NCBI GenBank assembly: GCA_964463155.1
Contig: CAYXAY010000005.1
Coordinates: forward strand, 1-32,000
Direction: 5' to 3'
DNA from: an uncultured archaeon
GTDB taxonomy: Archaea > Iainarchaeota > Iainarchaeia > Iainarchaeales > CSSED10-239
DNA length: 32,000 nt
Positions within the stretch are counted from its first letter, which is position 1. Each line of letters opens with the position of its first letter. The notes below the pieces were generated by a model. That model was not told where the DNA came from. It did no database searches and saw only the letters and a list, made by a program, of their open reading frames with translations. Positions 3,001 through 30,045 of the stretch are shown here, one piece after another. Position numbers and translations under genes: made by a program.

Positions 3001-6000
3001 GAACTTTATCTTTGGATCAATTACTGCAAATAATACTATCTCTGCTGGCATAGATGGTTCAAGGGATGCTGGAAGTTGTGTTTCTACAGTTAGTCCTGCA
3101 ACCTTATCAATGTCAGTTAAGACATAGCTTAAATCTTTTATTTGGATATTCCCTTTATTGATAATTGTTATTCTTTGACTTTCTTGGCTTATATTTTCTC
3201 CAAAGGTTATGTCTATGCTGTCAGGGGCATAGATTAGTCCCTTATCTGCAATTGTTAATTGCTTAGTGTAAGGAATATATCCTGGAGCGCTAACTTCTAA
3301 ATATGGCTTTGAGCTTGAAAAGTTTTGATTGATTATGTATACCCCGTTCTTTCCTGTTTTTGAACTGGCTATTAAGTCTCCAAACTCAGAGGTTATTTTT
3401 ACAAAGGCATTATTTATTGGTACCTTTGTTTCAGAGTCCTCTACACTTACTGTTATTGGAGAGTTGTAAGCTAATATCTCTTGTACATTAACAAGAAGTT
3501 TTCTTTTTTGCTTGACTTCAAAATTTAGTCTTTTTTCTATGACTTGTGAATTGAATGTGGTTTTAATGTCAAGATAGGTTACTCCTGTGTCCTTTGCCTT
3601 GAATAATAAATATTGTTTCCTGTTGTTTCCTGATTGTATTGACATGATTGAAGAAGTAAGTTTTGTGTCTGTTGAGTCAAGGGAACTGCGTGGCATAATT
3701 TCTGTTTCCTGATAATTGATTAACCCTAGTATTGGCCTGCTCTTGTCTGTCTCTGCGTTTATAGTTATTTCTCCATTTAACAAACTATAATAAGTAATTT
3801 CTAAAAGATACATATCATCCTTTACTGCAAAAAAGCTTTCCTTTGAATAATCAAAGCCTTCTGAGTCTAGAAACCTGTAATCAATACATAGGTTGTTTGA
3901 ACACTCTGCTGGTGTTTCTAAAACATTTAATCTTAATTGCTTGGTTTTTGCATAAAGGCCTTGTCTTGAAGAAACATTTCTTGAAACGTCAAGTATTGTA
4001 TCTTTTGGGTCTCTATAGATTGAACCAGAATAATCACACCAAGTTCTATAGCTTGCAGACATTGTTCCTATCTCGTTTGCTTTTACCTTTATCATTACTT
4101 GTTTTTTTGTTATGCTTGCAGATGACCAGTAAAGCTCTAACCATTTGTTTAATTGGTTTGGTTCTCCAACATTATCATAGTCTATTGATTGTTGGTTGTT
4201 ATTGTAGGTTGTTGAGTATTTGAATTTTGTTGTGTCTGCTTTAAAGCCTGTTATTCCATAACTCATGTTTTCAGAATCGTTTTCATAATCTTCTCCAATC
4301 CGAAAATGAGCGCCACAACTTGTTGCAGCGGTTGGAAATTGCAAATCAAAGACAAGATAATAATCTTTATCAACACTTAAAACTGTTGTTGGGCTGTTGT
4401 GTGTGTCTCTTAGTTCTACAAAGGAGATTACTGGATTTAAATCCGTTACTTCTGGCTTTAATGTTAAATTAAGATAATTTTCGTCTCCGATTATTGTTGA
4501 CATCACTGTTGTGTTTCCATTGTTGTCTGTGTATTCGATTATTAGGTTTTTGTAACCCTGTGTTTCAAATGTAAATGGCAAGTCTTCTAAAATACATTTA
4601 TCTTTAAGTATTGTTCCAAGTTTTGATTTTATTATTACACAACCTGTTGTTATTGGATTGCCGCGTGTGTCTTTTAATTTAAGAGTTATTGTTTTTGTTG
4701 CATCATTAACTATTAAAATTACTTTATTGTCCTTGAGAGGATCAATTGTTGTTTCTTGGCTTTCTGTTGTGTCGCCAACAATTCCTGTGACTTTGTAATC
4801 GTCTCTGCTCTTTGCATAGACTGATGTATGACCGGCAATATCAACAGTAAGAGGACCGGTTCCTATTGGAACATAAGTTCCATTTAGTTTTTTGTAAACC
4901 AAAACATTTGCTGTTGGTATTGGGTTGTTCACTGAATTTAAAACATATATTGATAATTTATAGATGTCTGCTGAACCAACCTTTGCTAAAGAAATCTCTA
5001 AGTTGTTTGAGGCATCTATGTTTGCAAGATACTGTGAGCAGGCATAGCCTTCTTTACAAGCAGTGACAACATAGTTTGTGTTTTGGTCAAGACCTGTAAA
5101 GGTTACTTGCCCATCCATTTTTGTTGTTGATGTTAGAAGTTCGTTTCCTGTTAAGTTGTAAAGAGTTACCTTTGAATCAAGCAATGGACCTACAAGATCT
5201 GCAACAACCATTACATTTAGGTTTGAACTTCCTGCAATTAATTTTACTGTAAAGCTTTCTTCGTTTTTTGATATCCTGTAGGTTTTGTGGTCCTTGTCAC
5301 TGTCATAGATTCTGTAGCCTTCTTTTGTTATAACAAAACGTATTACTTCTCCAACAGTTGTTTTAAATGTTACTTTTCCAAGTTTTGTTTTGGTATTGTT
5401 TATTATTTCTCCTGCTCTGTTGTATACTGTAACATTGCAATCATCAAGAAGATCTCCTAATTGGGTTGTTGCAAAAATTGTTAGTCTTGCTTCGCTTCCT
5501 TGAAGTAATGCTTTTTCTAAATCAAAATCCAAGGAGATGTTTTGTGTCTCAAGTAACTTTGTTAGTCTTATGGATTTGCTTACTGTTTCGTAGTTTTCAC
5601 TTTCAATTGTTAATGTTATATCTTTGTTTTGAGGAACTGATTCTATTGTAATTTCGCCAAGGTTGTTTGGGGTTGCAGTTATTTGTTGGGACCTCCCGTT
5701 TAGTCTGTAGTCTAATGTCGCGTTATAATCTGGTATTGATTTTTTGGTTTGGTTGTCTATAATTGTTAATTTTAATGTACCATAATTTATCAACTCATCA
5801 AACTTGATTGAAAGTGGTTTGCTACTATCAAAGGTTATTTGTTTGTTTAAATAGTGTGAATAACCTGTCTTTGTGGCATTGATTCTATAATCTGCACCAG
5901 GACGCAGGGCTATTCTTTTTTTGTCACCATCACTCATTATTCCTGTAAACTTTGTCTTGTCTTTTAGATCGCTTATAGAAACAGAAACATCAGTTAGTTT

Positions 6001-8335: not shown

Positions 8336-8713
8336 TTAAATATAATATTTATCTAATGATTTTTTAATCAAAATAACATCGTGATTTGATTGTTGATTTT
8401 TTAAATAAATGTCTATAAATAAAACTTCATTTTTTAGTTTTGACAAATGCCAAATTACTCTTGCGGTGAAATCGCGATCATCTGATATTCTCATTCGTGA
8501 TTTTATTACTAAATATTCTGAATATTTTTCCCCAAGTTTTATTCGCTCATTTCTTTTTGGAGATTCTTTTAATAGTTCTTCTCTTCGTGTTAAAATGGTT
8601 TGTTTAATTATCTCAAAATCTTTTACTAAACATCTTGGGTGTTTCTTTAAAACCTTATCAAATTTCTGCTCAAAATCAGAAGTGTTTTTAGCAACACAAT
8701 CAATGGATTCCAT
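8336..8713 (-). CDS. RelE/ParE-superfamily-like small protein, putative toxin partner of the upstream DUF4065 gene
   Basis: 125 aa. C-terminal pattern GEKYSEYLVIKSRMRISDDRDFTARVIWHLSKLKNEVLFIDIYLKNQQSNHD resembles the RelE/ParE core (x-R-hydrophobic-x-Y/W ... short strand ... basic tail). Its start lies 10 nt after the stop of the DUF4065 gene. Confidence 0.45.
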   Translation of the reverse strand: MESIDCVAKNTSDFEQKFDKVLKKHPRCLVKDFEIIKQTILTRREELLKESPKRNERIKLGEKYSEYLVIKSRMRISDDRDFTARVIWHLSKLKNEVLFIDIYLKNQQSNHDVILIKKSLDKYYI

Positions 8714-8723
8714 TGCTAATAAC

Positions 8724-9212
8724 CTACTCTACTAGTTTTTCTAAGGACTCTGCTCTGTAAAATACTAAATCATAATCTATTATACCATTATCTTTAGAAA
8801 CTAAATAAGGATTATCTTTGTGAGATAAATTTGATATTTGAGTCGCAGAAAGAGCGCCTAATTTTTTTATAACTTTATCAATTGTAGATATTTCCTCTTT
8901 TGATAATGTACTTAATTTAGGGGCATCTAAAATTTTATACTTTGTGTTTTGTGATAACTGTTTGGTTTCTATTTTTTTTCCCTTTTCTAATTTATCAATT
9001 ATTATTGCAATGTGTACTGGGGCGGGGCCAAACTCGATCTTTCTATATTCTTCATTTGTAATTGATTTATTGTTTTTTTTATAGTGATTAAAATCCGAAA
9101 AATATAATAATTTATATAAAACGGTCTTTCCAAAATTTGTATTTTTATCACATTTAGAAATAATATAATGGGCCATTTCACTTAGCTTTTCAGAATTGTA
9201 ATTTAAGACCAT
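8724..9212 (-). CDS. DUF4065 (Panacea / SocA-like) domain protein, putative antitoxin
   Basis: MAHYIISKCDKNTNFGKTVLYKLLYFSDFNHYKKNNKSITNEEYRKIEFGPAPV matches the conserved DUF4065 core (KLxKLLYxxD...G.PIT...Y...GPV). The internal ATG at 9212 is preferred. The ORF-track extension to 9344 overlaps the upstream gene and is preceded by a TTTATATA box near 9250. Confidence 0.7.
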   Translation of the reverse strand: MVLNYNSEKLSEMAHYIISKCDKNTNFGKTVLYKLLYFSDFNHYKKNNKSITNEEYRKIEFGPAPVHIAIIIDKLEKGKKIETKQLSQNTKYKILDAPKLSTLSKEEISTIDKVIKKLGALSATQISNLSHKDNPYLVSKDNGIIDYDLVFYRAESLEKLVE

Positions 9213-9295
9213 ATTTATCACAGCTATACATATATTATTAATTCTAATATATAAAAAGCTTTCGGAGGTAGATGCCCAGTGCGAAAAAATCGAAA

Positions 9296-9652
9296 TCAGT
9301 GCTCCATTTCTAGAGTGTTTGGATAATTTGGGTCCGGAACACACCCAACTCCACTTGGAGCAAACTTTTCATTACAATAACAATAATTGACTTCATGTTG
9401 TGGGAGAAGCTCTGGACAGTTTTCTAATGATTGAATCGATATTGAACGTATTATATTATTTACAAAATCTAACATAGATAATTGATTACAATTTAAGAAT
9501 AGATTTAGGGCAGGATAATCAAAATGACGAGAAAAACAAATATAGTTGTCTACTATTTCTAATATATTTGAATCAATTATAAAAACCCTACTATTTCCAT
9601 AATTAAATCCTCTAAAAATTAAATTTATATTTCTTGGTGTTTTTTTAGACAT
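9296..9652 (-). CDS. Hypothetical protein, Cys-containing, no recognisable family
   Basis: Open frame of 118 aa from the ATG at 9652 (MSKKTPRNINLIFRGF...). The codon style matches its neighbours. I recognise no motif. Confidence 0.4.
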   Translation of the reverse strand: MSKKTPRNINLIFRGFNYGNSRVFIIDSNILEIVDNYICFSRHFDYPALNLFLNCNQLSMLDFVNNIIRSISIQSLENCPELLPQHEVNYCYCNEKFAPSGVGCVPDPNYPNTLEMEH

Positions 9653-9750
9653 AAATTCTCCCAACTATACTTATATAATATAATTAGATATTAAATACAA
9701 ATATTTAAAAAATCGGTAGATACACAACAATGTAAGTGTTTGCCATTATG

Positions 9751-21713: not shown

Positions 21714-22310
21714 ATGAGAAAAACAAGAATAGCTATTGACTTAGATGATACTTTAGTTCCAACTGTAAACATTTTGATAAAAGAAATGCTAAAGGATAGA
21801 AAGTATCCTGCATTTAAAGGATATCATTCGATTAAAGACTTTACTTTTGAAGAAGAACTTATTTTGTACAAGTATATAAGAAAGACAATAAACAAACAAG
21901 ACATAACAAAATTTAAGCCAATGCTTGGCTCTGTTTCAATTATTAAAAAACTTGCAAAGGACTTTGATTTGTATCTTGTAACTGCAAGAACAAAAAGCAC
22001 AAAGAAGACAACAAGGGTTTGGATGGCACATCATTTTCCTGGGCTTTTCAAGAGAATCATTTTTGGGCAATATAGAAATGGAGGATACTTTAGAAAAACC
22101 AAAGGGCAAATCTGTAAAGAACAGGGAATTTCTTTAATCATTGATGATAGGTTTGATTATGCTTTGGATTGTCATAAGCATGGAGTAAAGGCAATAGTCA
22201 TAGACTATGATGATAGTTATGCTTGGTCCAAAGGAAAATTTCCAAAAGGTATGGAGAAAGCGAAAAACTGGAAAGAAGTTCTTGAAATTATCAAAAAGAC
22301 AAAGTTTTAA
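21714..22310 (+). CDS. HAD-superfamily 5'(3')-nucleotidase-like hydrolase
   Basis: HAD motif I IAIDLDDTLV, motif II LVTARTK, and the motif IV region IIDDRFDYA. Confidence 0.65.
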   Translation: MRKTRIAIDLDDTLVPTVNILIKEMLKDRKYPAFKGYHSIKDFTFEEELILYKYIRKTINKQDITKFKPMLGSVSIIKKLAKDFDLYLVTARTKSTKKTTRVWMAHHFPGLFKRIIFGQYRNGGYFRKTKGQICKEQGISLIIDDRFDYALDCHKHGVKAIVIDYDDSYAWSKGKFPKGMEKAKNWKEVLEIIKKTKF

Positions 22311-22900
22311 TTTAAAACTTTGTGTTTTAAATACACGAATTCGTATTCTGTTAATGGTATTTTATAACATTCATTAACTAACCATAAACCGCTATCTCTA
22401 ATCTTTTCTTTTGGAGAAAACTTCCCCAACCAATTATCGGTGGCTTTACAATATTTACAAGAAGAAATTGTAGAGATGATTTTAGATTCTAGACTTAATC
22501 TCTCATCTTTATCATTGACTTCAAAAACAACAAAACTAAAGTTCTCTTGAATACACTTGGTTACTTTCTTTTCTATTTCTTTTTGTTTATTTAAATCCAC
22601 TTGAGCAGAATACTTGTCTTTATTTTCTTTAGTTGTTAAGTCAAGCTCCCAAAATTCTAAAAAGGGATTATTTTCCTTGTTTAGCAAGGCCCTGCCAATA
22701 TTCTTTCTAAAAATCAAACGGTCCTTGTTTTCGTTTTCAAAGTGCTGTTTTAGTCTTGATGGCAGTTGGTCTTTACCGGTATGAGTTCCAATCCTTACAA
22801 TCCTGTCTTTACCATGAGCAACTTAGCCTTTCTCAAAAAGGATGTATGTTCAGTTCTTTGGAATGTCTTTTTTGTCAAAAGGAAAATTAAATTTTTTCAT
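22307..22900 (-). pseudogene. GIY-YIG-family nuclease-like gene with two in-frame stop codons
   Basis: From the ATG at 22900: MKKFNFPFDKKDIPKN*TYILFEKG*VAHGKDRIVRIGTHTGKDQLPSRLKQHFENENKDRLIFRKNIGRALLNK...GLWLVNECYK. The frame is continuous except for TGA (22852-22850) and TAA (22825-22823). The stops fall where the family has G (GIY) and E. Confidence 0.7.
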
Positions 22901-22904
22901 ACTA

Positions 22905-23036
22905 TTAAATAAATGTTTTCTCTGGAGAAAAGGTTTTTACAAATTTTAGATTGTATTTGAATAACGGACTAATGTAAAGACCCTTTGCCTTGCATTTATG
23001 TTCTTGCCTTTTACTAACACCGGAAATTAGGACCAT
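22905..23036 (-). pseudogene. Truncated DUF6884-like fragment (43 codons)
   Basis: MVLISGVSKRQEHKCKAKGLYISPLFKYNLKFVKTFSPEKTFI* resembles the N-terminus of DUF6884 proteins (ISCSK.K....A..LY.S.LF...). It stops where ILSAKYGL normally follows and ends 4 nt before the GIY-YIG-like ATG. Confidence 0.4.
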
Positions 23037-23101
23037 TTTTGCAATATTAATATATAGTATAAATCAATTTATAAACATTTTAGAGATTAATATATTTATA
23101 A

Positions 23102-23174
23102 AGCCTGGTAGTGTAGTGGCCAAGCATACAAGACTCTGGATCTTGTGACAGGAGTTCAAATCTCCTCCGGGCTA
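23102..23174 (+). tRNA. tRNA-Gln (anticodon CUG)
   Basis: Hand-folded cloverleaf. Acceptor AGCCUGG/CCGGGCU (A1-U72, one U-G pair), D stem GUGU/GCAU with a GG loop, anticodon stem CAAGA/UCUUG with loop CU-CUG-GA, T stem AGGAG/CUCCU with loop UUCAAAU, discriminator A. CCA is not encoded. A TTTATAAA box lies about 26-33 nt upstream. Confidence 0.85.
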
Positions 23175-25346: not shown

Positions 25347-27278
25347 TTAGGATATTCCTAAAAACTCCTTTAATTTTCTTTCAACTATCTCGTTTGCTTT
25401 ATTGCCATCAATCAAGCCATTGGTTTTAGCCATTAGTCTTCCAATCAACAGACCTTTTGCTCTTTCTCTTAATTCTAGTATTCTTGATTGGTTTTCTTGG
25501 ATTATTTCAGACATTATTTTGTCTAGGTCAAGAGTTTCCAAATCTTTGAATATCTTAAGCCTTTCTATTACTTCTTCTACGGTATTGTCAGAATTATTTA
25601 ATTCTATATAGATTTCTATTAACTTTGTTTTTGGTAGCTTGTTGAAATCTTTGTAGGAGAAAAACTCAAGAAGTTTTTTGCTTGTCACATTTTCCAAATC
25701 AAGTTTTCCTTCCCTTGAAAGATTGATAAGTTCTTCTAGAAGGAAAACAGCAACCTGTGTTGGATTACGTTCTGGGTTGTTAAGCATTATCTTTTCAAAG
25801 ATTGTAGCATAATTGTCAAGAACCATCTTTTCTGTTAATTGATTACTTATCTTGAAGTTTTCAAGATATAGCTTTTTTCTTTTTTCTACTGACAATGGCA
25901 TTTCCTTTTTTGTTTCTTCTAATAACTCTTTTGTAAAGACAATTGGCAAAAGATCAGTTTCAGGATACATTCTTGTTCCGCCAACAGATAATGGTCTTTG
26001 ATATTCTGTATTGCCGTCAGCATTGACAAGCCTTGTTTCTTTTGGTATCTCTTTTGAGAAAAGGTTTATTCTTTCCTCTAAGACCTCTTTAACATGTTCT
26101 ATTTCTTTTTTATCGCACATCACTAGGATATATGAGTCTTTTTCAGAGAGATTAAGATATGACTTAACTTTTTTTATTTCCTCTTCTGTTATTCCGTAGT
26201 TTGGGAGCTCGTCAGAATGAAACAAACCCTTTAGTGTTGTCTTTGCCTTTAGAATGCTTGCAAGTTCTGTTCCCACTCTCCTGTTTGGTTGAACCTCTCT
26301 ACCAAGAATATTGTTAAACCCTAAAAGTAAGAAGCCAAAGACGCATTTGTTTTGGTCAAGAGAAGTTTTTATTGCCTTTGACTCTGTGTCTTTGAAGATG
26401 TCTGTTAAGTCTTTTTCTTCAAGAACAATTTTTAAAATATTTCTTTTTTGTAGTTCTTCTTTAATTTCTAAAAGATTTAGTTGCCTTATTATTTCTCTTT
26501 TTATAATTTCCGGAATCAGATCTAAATCCTGACAACCCTTTATCTCTACTCTTGAACCTTTTGAGATTGAGACGTTTATGTCTTGGCGAATTGAGCCAAG
26601 ACCTCTTTTAACAAGGCCTGTTGTTCTGAAGAGTTGTCCAAGAAATAATGCGACCTTTTTTGTGTCTTCAGGAGTGTGCATGTCATGCCAAACAACCATC
26701 TCTATCAATGGTATTCCTAGACGATCAAGAGAATAGATTACTTCTGTTTCTTTTCTTTCAAGAACTCTTGCGGCGTCTTCCTCTAAAAGGATTTTGTCAA
26801 TCCTTACTTTCCCAAAATCAAAATTAAGATATCCATCAGTTGCTATCATGGTTGTTCTTTGAAAGCCAGAGACATTTGAACCATCAATCACTTGCTTTCT
26901 CATAATTATGGATTTATCAACTAATTTGCTGTTTGTTAGATTAGAAATTATTATTGCAATTTTTAGGGAGTCAGGATTTGTTCTGATTGGCGGTTGACAA
27001 TCCGCTTCCACTAAACAATTACAGACATTGTAGAAATAATAAACATAAGTTTTGTCTTTTTTGTGTTCAGAAACTGCCGCAAAATCTAATTCTCCTGATT
27101 CAGAATAAACAGGCCTTAATTTTCGTCTTATAATTCTGTCTGGCTTTGTTCCGTCTTTTATCATCTCTGATTTACATTTACAGAACAGTTTTCCTGTGTC
27201 CAATTGTTGATGAATCTCAAGGCCGCAAGAAAGACCAAGTGTTTTGTAATCAATTGAATCGATATTTATTTTATTCAT
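25347..27278 (-). CDS. gatE: Glutamyl-tRNA(Gln) amidotransferase subunit E
   Basis: 643 aa. GLSCGLEIHQQLDTGKLFCKC at the N-terminus, GatB/E catalytic core, AspRS-like insertion and a YqeY-like tail. Confidence 0.92.
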   Translation of the reverse strand: MNKINIDSIDYKTLGLSCGLEIHQQLDTGKLFCKCKSEMIKDGTKPDRIIRRKLRPVYSESGELDFAAVSEHKKDKTYVYYFYNVCNCLVEADCQPPIRTNPDSLKIAIIISNLTNSKLVDKSIIMRKQVIDGSNVSGFQRTTMIATDGYLNFDFGKVRIDKILLEEDAARVLERKETEVIYSLDRLGIPLIEMVVWHDMHTPEDTKKVALFLGQLFRTTGLVKRGLGSIRQDINVSISKGSRVEIKGCQDLDLIPEIIKREIIRQLNLLEIKEELQKRNILKIVLEEKDLTDIFKDTESKAIKTSLDQNKCVFGFLLLGFNNILGREVQPNRRVGTELASILKAKTTLKGLFHSDELPNYGITEEEIKKVKSYLNLSEKDSYILVMCDKKEIEHVKEVLEERINLFSKEIPKETRLVNADGNTEYQRPLSVGGTRMYPETDLLPIVFTKELLEETKKEMPLSVEKRKKLYLENFKISNQLTEKMVLDNYATIFEKIMLNNPERNPTQVAVFLLEELINLSREGKLDLENVTSKKLLEFFSYKDFNKLPKTKLIEIYIELNNSDNTVEEVIERLKIFKDLETLDLDKIMSEIIQENQSRILELRERAKGLLIGRLMAKTNGLIDGNKANEIVERKLKEFLGIS

Positions 27279-27282
27279 AATT

Positions 27283-28626
27283 TCACTTTTTTAAAACATC
27301 CCAATAGCCGATTTTATCTGAACCAATTCTTTTAATTTTTTTATCTGATTTTAATTTTCTTATTTTCCTAAATATTGTAATAGCACTTAATTTTAATTTT
27401 TTACTTAACTGTGTATAAGTGATTTTATTATTTTTTGTGATTTCAAAAATAATTTTGTCTTCTTCATTTACACCTTCATTTACACCTTCATTTACACCTT
27501 CATTTACACCTTCATTTACGGGGACATTTGGCCTATAAAAAATTACAGATAACCCGTTTGGTTCTAATCTGTATTCTACTTTAATTTTTTGTTCTTTACA
27601 GTATTCATTTATTCTTCTTATGCCCGAACCCCAATTTTCAATATAATCAAAATAATATAAAATTTGGGCAATACTAGGATTTCTTAAAATAGATTTTCCT
27701 TTACCCGATAAATAATCTTTTATAGAATATTCTTTTGGAAATTTCCCCGGGTTATAAATTTCAACTCTGTCTGGATAAATAGCAACCTCATTATTTTTTA
27801 TTATCGTATAATCTTTGTGGCAAAAAGAATTAATGATTGCTTCAAATAGCGCTCTTTCTGGAATCTCTAGTTTTTCATTACGTTCCGCTTTTGTAAGATC
27901 TGCTTGCCAATTAAGATGTTCAAAAAGATATTTTTTAGAAAAATCAATTAGCTCAAAAATATTTCCTTTCTTTAACTTAATATCAATAAAATCTTTTTTT
28001 TTTTTTGTCTTAAAAACAGCACACTGCAATTCAATATCTGATTTTTTTGAAAATAACATATTTCCTGCATTAGTTAAGTTGTTCTTATTTAAAAGATTTA
28101 ATTTATTCAAAACGTCTTTAACATTTGTAAATTTAAAATTAATTTTTTCATTTTGATTTGCCTTAGTAACAAATCTTCTTAATTGAACAGAATTTGTGTC
28201 TTTAATTAATCCGGTTGATAATTGTTTATCCCAAATTATATTATTTTGACTAACAATTCTTTCTTTTATATTTTCAAAATCTAATTGCTGATTTTGATCA
28301 CTTACTCTTATATAAGCTCTACCATATGCAAAATAAAGATTTGAATTCCCTTTAAAATCAACTAAAATACACTCTTTCTTATTCAATAAGATTTTTTTTA
28401 TATTTGGATGAATTTTTGGATCTATTGCTCTCGAGATTTCTGTTGCTATGTCTCTTAATGTGTCTTTACCTATATTTTGTCCAATTACTTCGCCATCATC
28501 TTTAATTCCAAAATAAATTCTGCCAGAATTATTTTTATTTAAAATTGCGCAAATAGAAATAATTGCATCTTTTAATTCAGATGTTGATTTTTTAAATTCA
28601 ACCTTTTCTGTTTCTTTTAATTGCAT
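27283..28626 (-). CDS. AlbA_2 (Schlafen-like) + HATPase_c_4 + C-terminal wHTH protein
   Basis: The N-terminus LKETEKVEFKKSTSELKDAIISICAILNKNNSGRIYFGIKDDGEVIG is the AlbA_2 signature. The middle, ERALFEAIINSFCHKDY...DRVEIYNPGKF...LRNPSIAQILYYFDYIENWGSGIRRI, is HATPase_c_4. A (VNEG)n linker follows, then a wHTH (ITYTQLSKKLKLSAITIFRKIRKL). Confidence 0.8.
   Translation of the reverse strand: MQLKETEKVEFKKSTSELKDAIISICAILNKNNSGRIYFGIKDDGEVIGQNIGKDTLRDIATEISRAIDPKIHPNIKKILLNKKECILVDFKGNSNLYFAYGRAYIRVSDQNQQLDFENIKERIVSQNNIIWDKQLSTGLIKDTNSVQLRRFVTKANQNEKINFKFTNVKDVLNKLNLLNKNNLTNAGNMLFSKKSDIELQCAVFKTKKKKDFIDIKLKKGNIFELIDFSKKYLFEHLNWQADLTKAERNEKLEIPERALFEAIINSFCHKDYTIIKNNEVAIYPDRVEIYNPGKFPKEYSIKDYLSGKGKSILRNPSIAQILYYFDYIENWGSGIRRINEYCKEQKIKVEYRLEPNGLSVIFYRPNVPVNEGVNEGVNEGVNEGVNEEDKIIFEITKNNKITYTQLSKKLKLSAITIFRKIRKLKSDKKIKRIGSDKIGYWDVLKK
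27463..27520. repeat. 12-bp in-frame tandem repeat TTCATTTACACC x4 plus a partial fifth copy, encoding (VNEG)n
   Basis: Four exact units at 27463-27510 and a diverged partial unit at 27511-27520. On the coding (minus) strand they read PVNEGVNEGVNEGVNEGVNEE. Confidence 0.9.
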
Positions 28627-28638
28627 AATGCTTTTTCT

Positions 28639-29991
28639 TTAAATATCAAAATTATCAAAACTTTCTGGAATTTCTTTTTTTGAAATTTCTCCGGCTATGG
28701 TTTTTTCCATGTATTTTATTATATCTTCTTTTGTTTTAAATCTTGAAAGAGCAATACTTAGTTTTAGATAAGCAACTTCTGGTAACATGTCGTGTTGGTC
28801 AAGATAACAGCCTCCTGCTTCTTGAATATATCTTAAATTTGCATAAACGTTTCCATTTACCCTGCCAAATAAACACAGAGTGGTTATAATTACAATTATT
28901 CCTTTGTCTGTTGCTTTCTTAATATATGGAACCCAGCTTTTCTTCTTGTCAAAGGATTTGTCGGTTCCACCCATTCCTGTTGGGCAATGTCCAAGTCCTG
29001 TACCTTCTATTACTAGCCCTTTATAGCCTTTTTTAATATACCACTCTATGATTTTTGGATCGCTATTTGGATAAGCTTTAACTATTGCAACATTGTCTGA
29101 AAAATCAATAAATAGTTTTGGCTCTATCCTTGGTCTTACAATCAATTGCCTTTTGTCTTTTAAGTATTCTATTTTTCCATTTTGATAAACCCTTGCTATT
29201 GGAAAATCATTGATTGCCCTAAAAGAATCTCTTCTTGAGGTGTGCATTTTTCTACATTTTGTTGCTCTTATTACATTACAGAAATCATCACTAATTGAGC
29301 CGTGCATCATTGTGTAAATTCCAGGCACTTCTTCTTTAATAAATTGAGCAGCACATATTAGATTCATAGCTCCATCAAAACTGGCCCTGTCTGGAGACCT
29401 CTGAGCGCCAACTAAGATTATTGGTTTGTTAATATTTTCAATCATAAAAGAAAGAATAGTTCCAGTCCAGGTTAATGTGTCTGTTCCGTGAGAGATTATT
29501 ATTCCTTTAATTTCGGGGGTAATCAACTGCTCATAAACCTTTTCTGCAATCTTTTGCCAATCTTTATAACCTAGATCTTCGCTTCCTTTCATAGCTACTG
29601 GTTGTATATTTTTAATATTAACAATTTCAAGAAGTTCAGGAACTGTTGAAATTATTTCTTCTGGAGTTCTTGACATACTTACTCCGCCTGTCTTATAATC
29701 AACATGTGTTCCTATTGTCCCTCCTGTTGAAACTAAAGAAATTGCAGGAAGTGCTTCATTTTGTTTAATTGTTAATTTGTGTTTTTTTCCTAAATTTTTC
29801 TTTTCATTCTCTATTTCTATTTTTGTGTCTTTATCAGTAGTTACTCCAATATTATAACCATTATCTAAAAGTTTAAGAGTTAGTTCTTGGATATTTTCTT
29901 TTTCTATAAACTTTACAAGATAACCTTTATAGATAATTTTATTTTTATTAATAGTAATTAATTTACCTCTATCTTTTTCAGACACAATCAT
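28639..29991 (-). CDS. gatD: Glutamyl-tRNA(Gln) amidotransferase subunit D (asparaginase-like)
   Basis: 450 aa. GatD-specific N-domain, then asparaginase motifs ISLVSTGGTIG and ISHGTDTL. Confidence 0.92.
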   Translation of the reverse strand: MIVSEKDRGKLITINKNKIIYKGYLVKFIEKENIQELTLKLLDNGYNIGVTTDKDTKIEIENEKKNLGKKHKLTIKQNEALPAISLVSTGGTIGTHVDYKTGGVSMSRTPEEIISTVPELLEIVNIKNIQPVAMKGSEDLGYKDWQKIAEKVYEQLITPEIKGIIISHGTDTLTWTGTILSFMIENINKPIILVGAQRSPDRASFDGAMNLICAAQFIKEEVPGIYTMMHGSISDDFCNVIRATKCRKMHTSRRDSFRAINDFPIARVYQNGKIEYLKDKRQLIVRPRIEPKLFIDFSDNVAIVKAYPNSDPKIIEWYIKKGYKGLVIEGTGLGHCPTGMGGTDKSFDKKKSWVPYIKKATDKGIIVIITTLCLFGRVNGNVYANLRYIQEAGGCYLDQHDMLPEVAYLKLSIALSRFKTKEDIIKYMEKTIAGEISKKEIPESFDNFDI

Positions 29992-30045
29992 AAATACTCA
30001 CTTTTCTAAAATATATATAAGAAAAAGAATATATAAAGTTAATGC

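Follow-up and report, generated by a model that had tools for sequence, protein, structure and literature searches.

In a stretch of 32,000 nucleotides (nt) from an uncultured DPANN-like archaeon (contig CAYXAY010000005.1, positions 1 to 32,000; we will call the whole stretch the window), gatD and gatE, which encode the two subunits of the Glu-tRNA(Gln) amidotransferase, are separated by a third gene. This gene encodes a protein of 447 amino acids (aa) with a Schlafen (AlbA_2) nuclease-like domain, a GHKL-type ATPase domain, and a winged helix-turn-helix (wHTH). We will call it X. The explanation that we favor, and that we consider reasonably probable, is that X is an accessory ATP-gated RNase, probably of a defense type, that rides in a housekeeping operon. 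Since X is missing from close relatives, the likeliest view is that it is an optional passenger rather than a GatDE partner. The features of the locus are:

29992..30045, minus strand: intergenic region upstream of gatD, 54 nt, presumed operon promoter (sequence)
28639..29991, minus strand: gatD, Glu-tRNA(Gln) amidotransferase subunit D, 450 aa (listing of open reading frames (ORFs), NCBIfam, Pfam)
28627..28638, minus strand: gatD-X spacer, 12 nt, AGAAAAAGCATT (sequence)
27283..28626, minus strand: gene X, Schlafen(AlbA_2)-GHKL ATPase-wHTH protein, 447 aa (ORF listing, Pfam, AlphaFold2 model)
27279..27282, minus strand: X-gatE spacer, 4 nt, AATT (sequence)
25347..27278, minus strand: gatE, Glu-tRNA(Gln) amidotransferase subunit E, 643 aa (ORF listing, NCBIfam, Pfam)

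The original prediction for this locus, which was made from the sequence alone, placed X between gatD and gatE on the same strand with spacers of 12 and 4 nt, and the ORF listing and the sequence agree. Its naming of gatD and gatE also stands: both proteins match NCBIfam equivalogs above the cutoffs (416 bits versus 310 for GatD and 685 bits versus 456 for GatE). The Pfam domains are GatD_N, Asparaginase, and Asparaginase_C in GatD, and GatB_N, GAD, and GatB_Yqey in GatE.

All three start codons (gatD, X, and gatE) have a Shine-Dalgarno (SD)-like motif of the GTGA/GGA type on their 5' side, and the stop codon of X lies inside the SD-like GTGA ahead of gatE. The region upstream of gatD contains two TATA-like boxes (CTTTATATATTC and CTTATATATATTTTAG) and an SD-like AAGTGAG, and we presume that it is the promoter of the operon. 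Neither the gatD-X junction nor the X-gatE junction has an oligo-T run or an obvious promoter-sized gap. This agrees with the claim that there is no room for a separate promoter or terminator, but the claim went too far in one respect. Archaeal TATA boxes may sit within the upstream ORF, and in a genome with about 31% GC, a promoter for X could be hidden in the 3' end of gatD. Judging from these signals, gatD, X, and gatE are likely to be co-transcribed, and the expression of X together with gatDE is plausible.

A block upstream of gatD, CTTTATATATTCTTTTTCTTATATATATTTTAG, is near-invariant in the window and in eight related contigs (L001, L003, L006, L007, L008, L009, L015, and L023; we number the other loci with the prefix L). 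In these same lineages, the coding sequences are merely 57-95% identical at the protein level. The block appears to be a promoter or leader element under strong constraint.

Profile searches with Pfam found the three domains of X that had been read from its sequence (AlbA_2, HATPase_c_4, and wHTH). Within X, we distinguish:

28282..28614, minus strand: Schlafen/AlbA_2 nuclease-like domain, aa 5-115 (Pfam SLFN_AlbA_2, PF04326; E = 6.7e-19, 69.0 bits versus a cutoff of 25.3)
28591-28614, minus strand: E5-x4-E10-x-K12 motif (alignment of 90 homologs)
27532..27879, minus strand: GHKL-type ATPase domain, about aa 250-365 (Pfam HATPase_c_4, PF13749, at aa 280-363, E = 1.7e-19, 70 bits; Foldseek)
27462..27519, minus strand: (VNEG)n linker, a perfect 12-nt tandem repeat with 4.8 copies (Tandem Repeats Finder)
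27286..27468, minus strand: C-terminal wHTH, aa 387-447 (Pfam HTH_24 at aa 391-432, E = 1.8e-06)

X has the Ex4(E/D)xK motif, as E5-TEKV-E10-F-K12. In the alignment of 90 homologs, conservation is 99% at E5 and 100% at E7, E10, and K12. The N-box of the GHKL domain (E262-x3-N266) is invariant in the same alignment, as are G294, S334, G335, and R338, and the domain carries an NPG/WGSGxxR lid.

We used the alignment of 90 sequences to build an AlphaFold2 model of X as a single chain. The model has a predicted local distance difference test score (pLDDT) of 88.8, and the score drops below 50 solely at the linker (aa 369-386), which is disordered. When the model was compared to the PDB with Foldseek, the best match was 3LMM (E = 2.7e-21). 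The N-terminal domain resembles SLFN12 (7LRE), SLFN11 (7ZEL), SLFN13 (5YD0), SLFN5 (7CUX), and SAMD9 (9O0D), with E values of 1e-5 to 4e-3 and a probability of 1.0. The template modeling scores to the Schlafen C-lobes are low because a single domain aligns. The middle domain resembles the GHKL kinases PDK2/4, HK853, and ThkA. In a scan with NCBIfam-type profiles, the HTH regions of AsnC and ChrS came up as weak matches. A look-up of the exact sequence of X found no record.

By its sequence, X is an unremarkable example of a class that is already known and is abundant; this class has been described both as Schlatpase-HTH and as the HisKinase-HTH class of prokaryotic Schlafens. The original prediction considered proteins with AlbA_2 and HATPase_c_4 to be poorly understood. 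This is out of date, as two papers from 2026 define the architecture (PMC13056530; bioRxiv 10.64898/2026.05.29.728809). Perez Taboada et al. 2026 catalogued 5,930 prokaryotic Schlafens (pSlfn), with the catalytic motif Ex4(E/D)xK, and "HisKinase-HTH" fusions ranked second in frequency among the classes, with 19.2% (PMC13056530). The other paper named the pair of PF04326 and PF13749 the "Schlatpase" supra-domain. It accounts for 58.6% of 103,533 prokaryotic SLFN proteins, most of which are small with a C-terminal HTH, and over 90% of the C-terminal tails of Schlatpases are HTH domains (bioRxiv 10.64898/2026.05.29.728809).

X has the Schlatpase architecture, with SLFN on the N-terminal side of GHKL within one polypeptide. 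It shares with the small Schlatpase-HTH proteins the domain order (PF04326-PF13749-HTH), the size of about 450 aa, the retained Ex4ExK and GHKL E-x3-N sites, and a flexible linker that precedes the C-terminal module, and it belongs, as they do, to a family given to horizontal transfer. In contrast to typical members, X is surrounded by housekeeping genes, within the essential operon for a tRNA amidotransferase, with no defense island or restriction-modification (R-M) genes as neighbors, and its host, unlike those described, is a DPANN-like archaeon. Although SLFN-GHKL-HTH is the most abundant class of prokaryotic Schlafens, we know of no member whose function has been demonstrated.

Related Schlafen fusions cleave tRNA and act in phage defense (PMC13056530; bioRxiv 10.64898/2026.05.29.728809). 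In a fusion with Argonaute (the SLFN-pAgo protein RzAgo), the binding of ATP to the GHKL domain leads to tetramerization, which assembles the tRNA-cleaving Schlafen site, and the ATP site is E314/N318 (bioRxiv 10.64898/2026.05.29.728809). We infer from the sequences that E262 and N266 of X are the equivalent residues. X has the same GHKL domain that in RzAgo drives the ATP-dependent tetramerization and so licenses tRNA cleavage. X also shares the nuclease domain, which is similar to the Schlafen C-lobe, and its motif with RzAgo and RorSlfn5/Cash, the prokaryotic Schlafen defense nucleases that have been characterized by experiment. In contrast to these proteins, X lacks Argonaute, Ig-like, and Csx15 sensors, and its wHTH is the only candidate sensor.

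3LMM (DIP2311 from Corynebacterium diphtheriae) is the best match to X in both structure and sequence across AlbA_2 and GHKL (phmmer, 0.004), but it is just 14-16% identical, has 583 aa, is bacterial, and is a structural-genomics entry of unassigned function. The mammalian proteins SLFN11/12/13/5 and the tRNase domain of SAMD9 have the same nuclease C-lobe fold and the Ex4ExK motif, with about 150 residues aligning to X at 11-19% identity. X differs in that it lacks the N-lobe and the superfamily 1 (SF1) helicase, and its ATPase is an unrelated GHKL domain. We rejected the idea that X is a eukaryotic Schlafen of the SLFN11/13 type: it has a single AlbA_2 lobe, a GHKL ATPase, and no helicase domain.

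We found gatD-X-gatE in the window and in seven other contigs (L001-L005, L007, and L008), all from an uncultured DPANN-like clade. The four closest homologs of X (85, 79, 77, and 62% identity) are all in this arrangement, with GtrA and two PmbA/TldD genes upstream, and the arrangement reaches down to about 60% identity of GatE. In the seven other loci, the gatD-X spacer is 7-16 nt, and X and gatE either overlap, by up to 4 nt, or lie up to 11 nt apart.

L001-L004 were found via X itself; the sample that was ascertained via GatE is unbiased for the presence of X. A GatE-based scan of GTDB genomes gave five lineages of related metagenome-assembled genomes (L005-L009), and three of these (L005, L007, and L008) have gatD-X-gatE. 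In L006, gatD abuts gatE with a 2-nt spacer and no X. In L009, the slot between gatD and gatE is filled by an unrelated 217-aa ORF (5323-5976) with no Pfam match. X is also absent from L015, whose GatD is 95% identical (at the amino acid level) to that of the window, and from L023, both with a gatD-gatE spacer of 12 nt, as well as from L024, which is equivalent to L006. The inner clade that was ascertained via GatE thus contains three lineages with X and three without (L006/L024, L015, and L023), and those without X are nested among those with X. All of the more distant family-level relatives that we sampled (L016-L022) lack X too and have gatD next to gatE. A scan of metagenomes with a GatE profile yielded 80 gatE loci, L015-L024 among them, and a homolog of X is in 0 of the 80.

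Because L006/L024, L015, and L023 have adjacent gatD and gatE genes, X is dispensable for GatDE. The original prediction had reasoned that if the arrangement were unique to this genome, with gatD and gatE adjacent in its relatives, then X would be a simple recent insertion. Half of this holds: close relatives do have the two genes side by side without X, but the arrangement is present in eight lineages and is not unique. As for carriage by viruses, patterns from the family alignment found no relatives of X in IMG/VR, and GenBank phage records gave weak or partial matches alone.

All eight lineages have an intact X (442-455 aa). Its pairwise ratios of nonsynonymous to synonymous substitutions (dN/dS) are 0.11-0.24, which is similar to GatD and GatE, and its synonymous sites are near saturation (proportion of synonymous differences, or pS, of about 0.5-0.6). 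Among seven orthologs from the inner clade (subclades A and B), the Schlatpase core (aa 1-365) has an identity of 81-92%, and its identity to L002 is 68-72%. The dN/dS of the core is 0.04-0.16, and that of the GHKL domain is 0.04.

The linker and the wHTH have a mean identity of 55% and a dN/dS of 0.36-0.5 (0.36 for the wHTH), and they come in two types. The window, L004, L005, and L008 have a (VNEG)n linker and a wHTH with ...TIFRKI..., while L001, L002, L003, and L007 have a (VNVP)n linker and a wHTH with ...KTIKRE.... These types are shuffled relative to the tree of the core. For instance, the identity between L005 and L007 is 92% for the core but only 62% for the wHTH. The copy number of (VNEG)n or (VNVP)n varies among the orthologs in L001-L008, and repeat slippage would alter the length of the linker while keeping the frame.

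The flanking genes show mosaicism as well. The window groups with L015 and L003 in the GatD tree and with the L005-L008 clade in the GatE tree, and lineages without X are nested within both subclades in these trees. In a sliding-window comparison to L015, nucleotide identity is 93-95% across gatD only and 61-83% upstream of it. In gatE, it is 85-87% over the first ~450 nt and about 70% beyond, and the window's gatE is made up of alternating segments that are clade-B-like or clade-A-like. The tract in gatD is:

28640-29990 of the window, versus 4636-5988 of L015: gatD tract shared with an X-less activated-sludge contig (sliding-window identity)

The pattern of identity points to a recent recombination, apparently confined to gatD, between a lineage with X and a lineage without it.

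The composition of X is unusual. Its GC content is 0.249, and no gene in the window has a lower GC content at third codon positions (GC3; 0.145 for X versus about 0.20-0.36 for the others). In 7 of the 8 lineages, the GC3 of X is below that of its flanks (0.11-0.15 versus 0.17-0.28). Junctions with and without X differ by the ORF and the short spacers alone, with no mobility genes. At the X-less junctions of L015, L023, and L006, we saw no convincing direct repeats or remnants of X codons, so these junctions do not choose between gain and loss. Taken together, these comparisons show that X is a long-resident accessory gene whose presence/absence alleles and C-terminal module have been reshuffled via homologous recombination in the conserved flanks.

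Outside this clade, homologs of X at 45-49% identity are found in a mix of taxa (DPANN, the candidate phyla radiation, Omnitrophica, Elusimicrobia, and others) and in unrelated contexts: beside Fic/Bro-N, beside DUF433/AAA_14, in a glycosyltransferase operon, or among unknown genes. Some homologs are on bacterial plasmids beside type I R-M genes. The original prediction was right that X belongs to a Schlafen-related family that often occurs in mobile or defense contexts. Two homologs from metagenome-assembled genomes of Nanoarchaeota have tRNA-related neighbors. One, with 49% identity to X, is convergent with a class Ic tRNA synthetase of the Glu/Gln type (GluRS), 2 nt away (region 518-3480 of L095). 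The other, with 47% identity, follows a gene for a Trm5/TYW2 tRNA methyltransferase on its downstream side, at a distance of 94 nt (region 3298-5715 of L097).

The original prediction also asked whether the gene between gatD and gatE is always from this family, and it is not. Of 35 loci with gatD followed by gatE, 12 have a gap of over 40 nt, and most of these gaps hold unrelated ORFs. Unrelated genes fill the slot in other archaea, and the gatD-gatE junction tolerates insertions. Besides ORFs of 75-78 aa in L041 (5777-6004), L042 (2882-3118), and L045 (1212-1448), the slot contains:

L060, 3682-4673: AsnC and Nudix (Pfam)
L084, 4560-5176: DUF5678 and a weak match to an aspartyl-protease-like domain (Pfam)
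L069, 5548-5862, reverse strand: 104-aa ORF
L058, 4680-5988: three ORFs

In L017 (3107-3230), the gatD-gatE spacer contains no gene; it is a tandem repeat of about 17-18 nt with TTGCTGTTAGAAAAGAT-like units.

By analogy with the characterized relatives, we propose the following mechanism. The binding of ATP to the GHKL domain of X would lead to its oligomerization, which would pair the Schlafen domains and form an RNA-binding cleft. Once X is triggered, the Ex4ExK site would cleave RNA, most likely tRNA. The fast-evolving linker and wHTH would be the sensing or regulatory module. X would have entered the operon, a housekeeping unit with translational coupling, when an ancestor of the DPANN-like clade acquired it, and would be expressed by read-through from the gatD promoter. 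Homologous recombination in the conserved gatD and gatE flanks would then keep, remove, or swap X as a presence/absence allele. Its role would probably be antiviral or conflict-related. Prokaryotic Schlafen nucleases were recently shown to be tRNA-cleaving antiviral effectors, with about 30% of the genes lying outside of defense islands.

Several observations weigh against a passenger of the defense type. A location near known defense genes is typical of pSlfn (69.6%), though not obligatory; we found none near X, and the window is a housekeeping region. PADLOC did not find a complete system in the window and filed X under no defense system; its matches, all of them partial, were to SIR2-PNTD proteins that are associated with Argonaute and to the HTHs of CARF/Csa3. 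Two pSlfn of the HisKinase class did not protect E. coli against the phage panel used (PMC13056530). The retention of X at one locus, down to about 60% identity of GatE and with tight spacing throughout, is stabler than is typical for a defense gene. Its history could be either one ancient gain with several losses or spread by allelic exchange. There are also hints of a tie to tRNA metabolism. The slot ORFs of L041 and L045 match MJ1316 (PF04457, RNA cyclic group end recognition) and that of L042 resembles them by sequence; these are from a lineage of distant archaea whose GatE is 36-38% identical, and they make up a conserved gatD-MJ1316-gatE arrangement of their own. And tRNA-related neighbors are present in 2 of the 7 independent contexts for homologs of X. 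If we assume that about 13% of genes in small archaeal genomes would qualify, then the probability of at least 2 of 7 is about 0.23, so we set this association aside as evidence and consider it a lead only.

These hints relate to another explanation, which is that X is a partner of GatDE and tRNA-Gln: a tRNA-directed surveillance or regulatory nuclease that, for example, removes mischarged Glu-tRNA(Gln) or damaged tRNA-Gln. A single transcript would yield X in a fixed ratio with GatD and GatE. The tight same-strand placement of X in eight lineages (spacers of -4 to 16 nt), purifying selection equal to that on GatD and GatE, the intact nuclease motif in a protein whose relatives cleave tRNA, and a tRNA-Gln gene 2-5 kb downstream across the clade are all consistent with this idea, as are the neighboring GluRS (L095) and Trm5 (L097) genes and the MJ1316 proteins in the slots of L041, L042, and L045. 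Nevertheless, we consider it improbable. In the close relatives L006/L024, L015, and L023, X is absent and a spacer of 2-12 nt separates gatD from gatE, and none of the 80 other gatE loci has X. The nearest homologs from outside the clade are mostly in unrelated contexts, with the tRNA-related neighbors at chance level. The linkage to tRNA-Gln is equally present in loci without X, and the recombining, fast-evolving wHTH and the low GC3 suit an accessory gene better. Thus, neither the distribution of X nor the contexts of its homologs support a partnership. A broader version would make the gatD-gatE junction a recurrent home for proteins that target RNA or sense RNA ends, with X coupled to tRNA-Gln transamidation (such as a quality-control or stress-triggered nuclease for tRNA-Gln whose dosage is tied to GatDE), and this seems just as doubtful. 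The context of X is unusual, but its class is known, and the evidence points away from a new system for tRNA-Gln surveillance, which we view as a long shot.

X might instead be mainly a DNA-binding transcriptional regulator of gatDE or of other genes, with the wHTH binding DNA and the ATPase acting as a ligand switch. Its relatives have names at NCBI such as "transcriptional regulator" or "putative DNA binding domain-containing protein", its C-terminal wHTH is of the HTH_24/DeoR-like type with weak matches to the HTHs of AsnC and ChrS, and the great majority (>90%) of Schlatpase tails are HTH domains. A location within the operon would also permit autoregulation. However, the region upstream of gatD, including both TATA-like boxes, is identical in loci with and without X, with no X-specific operator visible. 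Because of this identity, the proposal that X autoregulates the operon is weakened. Furthermore, the nuclease and ATPase motifs are the most constrained parts of X and the wHTH is the least, and an invariant Ex4ExK site would be superfluous in a protein that only regulates. We therefore view a primarily regulatory role as unlikely. Or, X could be purely selfish, and persist because its imprecise deletion or silencing, between coupled essential genes, would harm the expression of gatE. The extremely tight spacing, with the stop codon of X overlapping the SD-like GTGA of gatE, would fit, and so would the patchy distribution, the evident recombination, the low GC3, and the family's disposition to horizontal transfer. 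But the dN/dS of the core is 0.04-0.16 across saturated synonymous divergence, and this strong purifying selection on the catalytic residues implies selection for activity and not for mere presence. Clean X-less alleles exist, so the loss of X is feasible, and the locus has no integrase, terminal repeats, or toxin-antitoxin partner. We give the purely selfish explanation little credence. The original prediction's third suggestion, a gene that hitchhikes where it is sure to be expressed, fares best of its three if X is taken as a passenger, while the purely selfish form of it is disfavored by the purifying selection.

We also rejected two related candidates. X does not look like a toxin-antitoxin or addiction module, as there is no extra ORF, the spacers are 12 and 4 nt, and the neighbors are gatD and gatE. 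Nor does it look like a discrete mobile element, as there is no integrase or transposase and there are no terminal repeats or target-site duplications at its boundaries.

If X is merely a passenger, as we favor, then this is a modest case study. Still, the locus provides a natural comparison, with and without X, for asking what the SLFN-GHKL-HTH class does, and the two haplotypes still recombine, in tiny DPANN-like genomes. It illustrates one way for accessory genes to survive in streamlined genomes, which is to nest inside a housekeeping operon. It also gives a specific and falsifiable hypothesis about tRNA-Gln: a tie between X and GatDE would give a prokaryotic Schlafen its first non-immune, housekeeping role.

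The neighbors in the window include GtrA, PmbA/TldD, GatD, GatE, tRNA-Gln, a TyrRS/TrpRS-like protein, an XPD helicase, and phosphoenolpyruvate synthase. There is no rRNA in the 32,000 nt. The host is an uncultured DPANN-like archaeon, with relatives from activated-sludge and other metagenomes.

The tRNA-Gln gene is at 23102-23174 (plus strand) of the window. It lies downstream of gatE and on the opposite strand, at a distance of 2-5 kb. Other copies are in L005 (9788-9860), L006 (11466-11541), L007 (10215-10287), L009 (10214-10288), L015 (13459-13533), L016 (9686-9760), and L019 (9337-9411). The anticodon is CUG, except in L016 and L019, where it is UUG. The linkage between gatE and tRNA-Gln is kept across the family-level clade, in loci with and without X alike, so the amidotransferase genes and the gene for their tRNA substrate form a conserved linkage.

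A segment of about 775 bp (22311-23085) ends 16 nt from the tRNA-Gln gene. It is replaced by about 0-17 bp in L015, L005, L007, and L006, and it contains a 136-aa ORF (22307-22717, minus strand) with no Pfam match. It looks like a small insertion beside the tRNA gene.

At the left end of the window, an ORF of at least 2,121 codons (1 to ~6400, minus strand) runs off the end and encodes a giant protein. Further along, a gene at 8724-9344 (minus strand) has a SocA/Panacea antitoxin domain (PF13274, E = 1.7e-22), and together with the small ORFs that flank it (8336-8713 and 9296-9664), it may form a toxin-antitoxin module.

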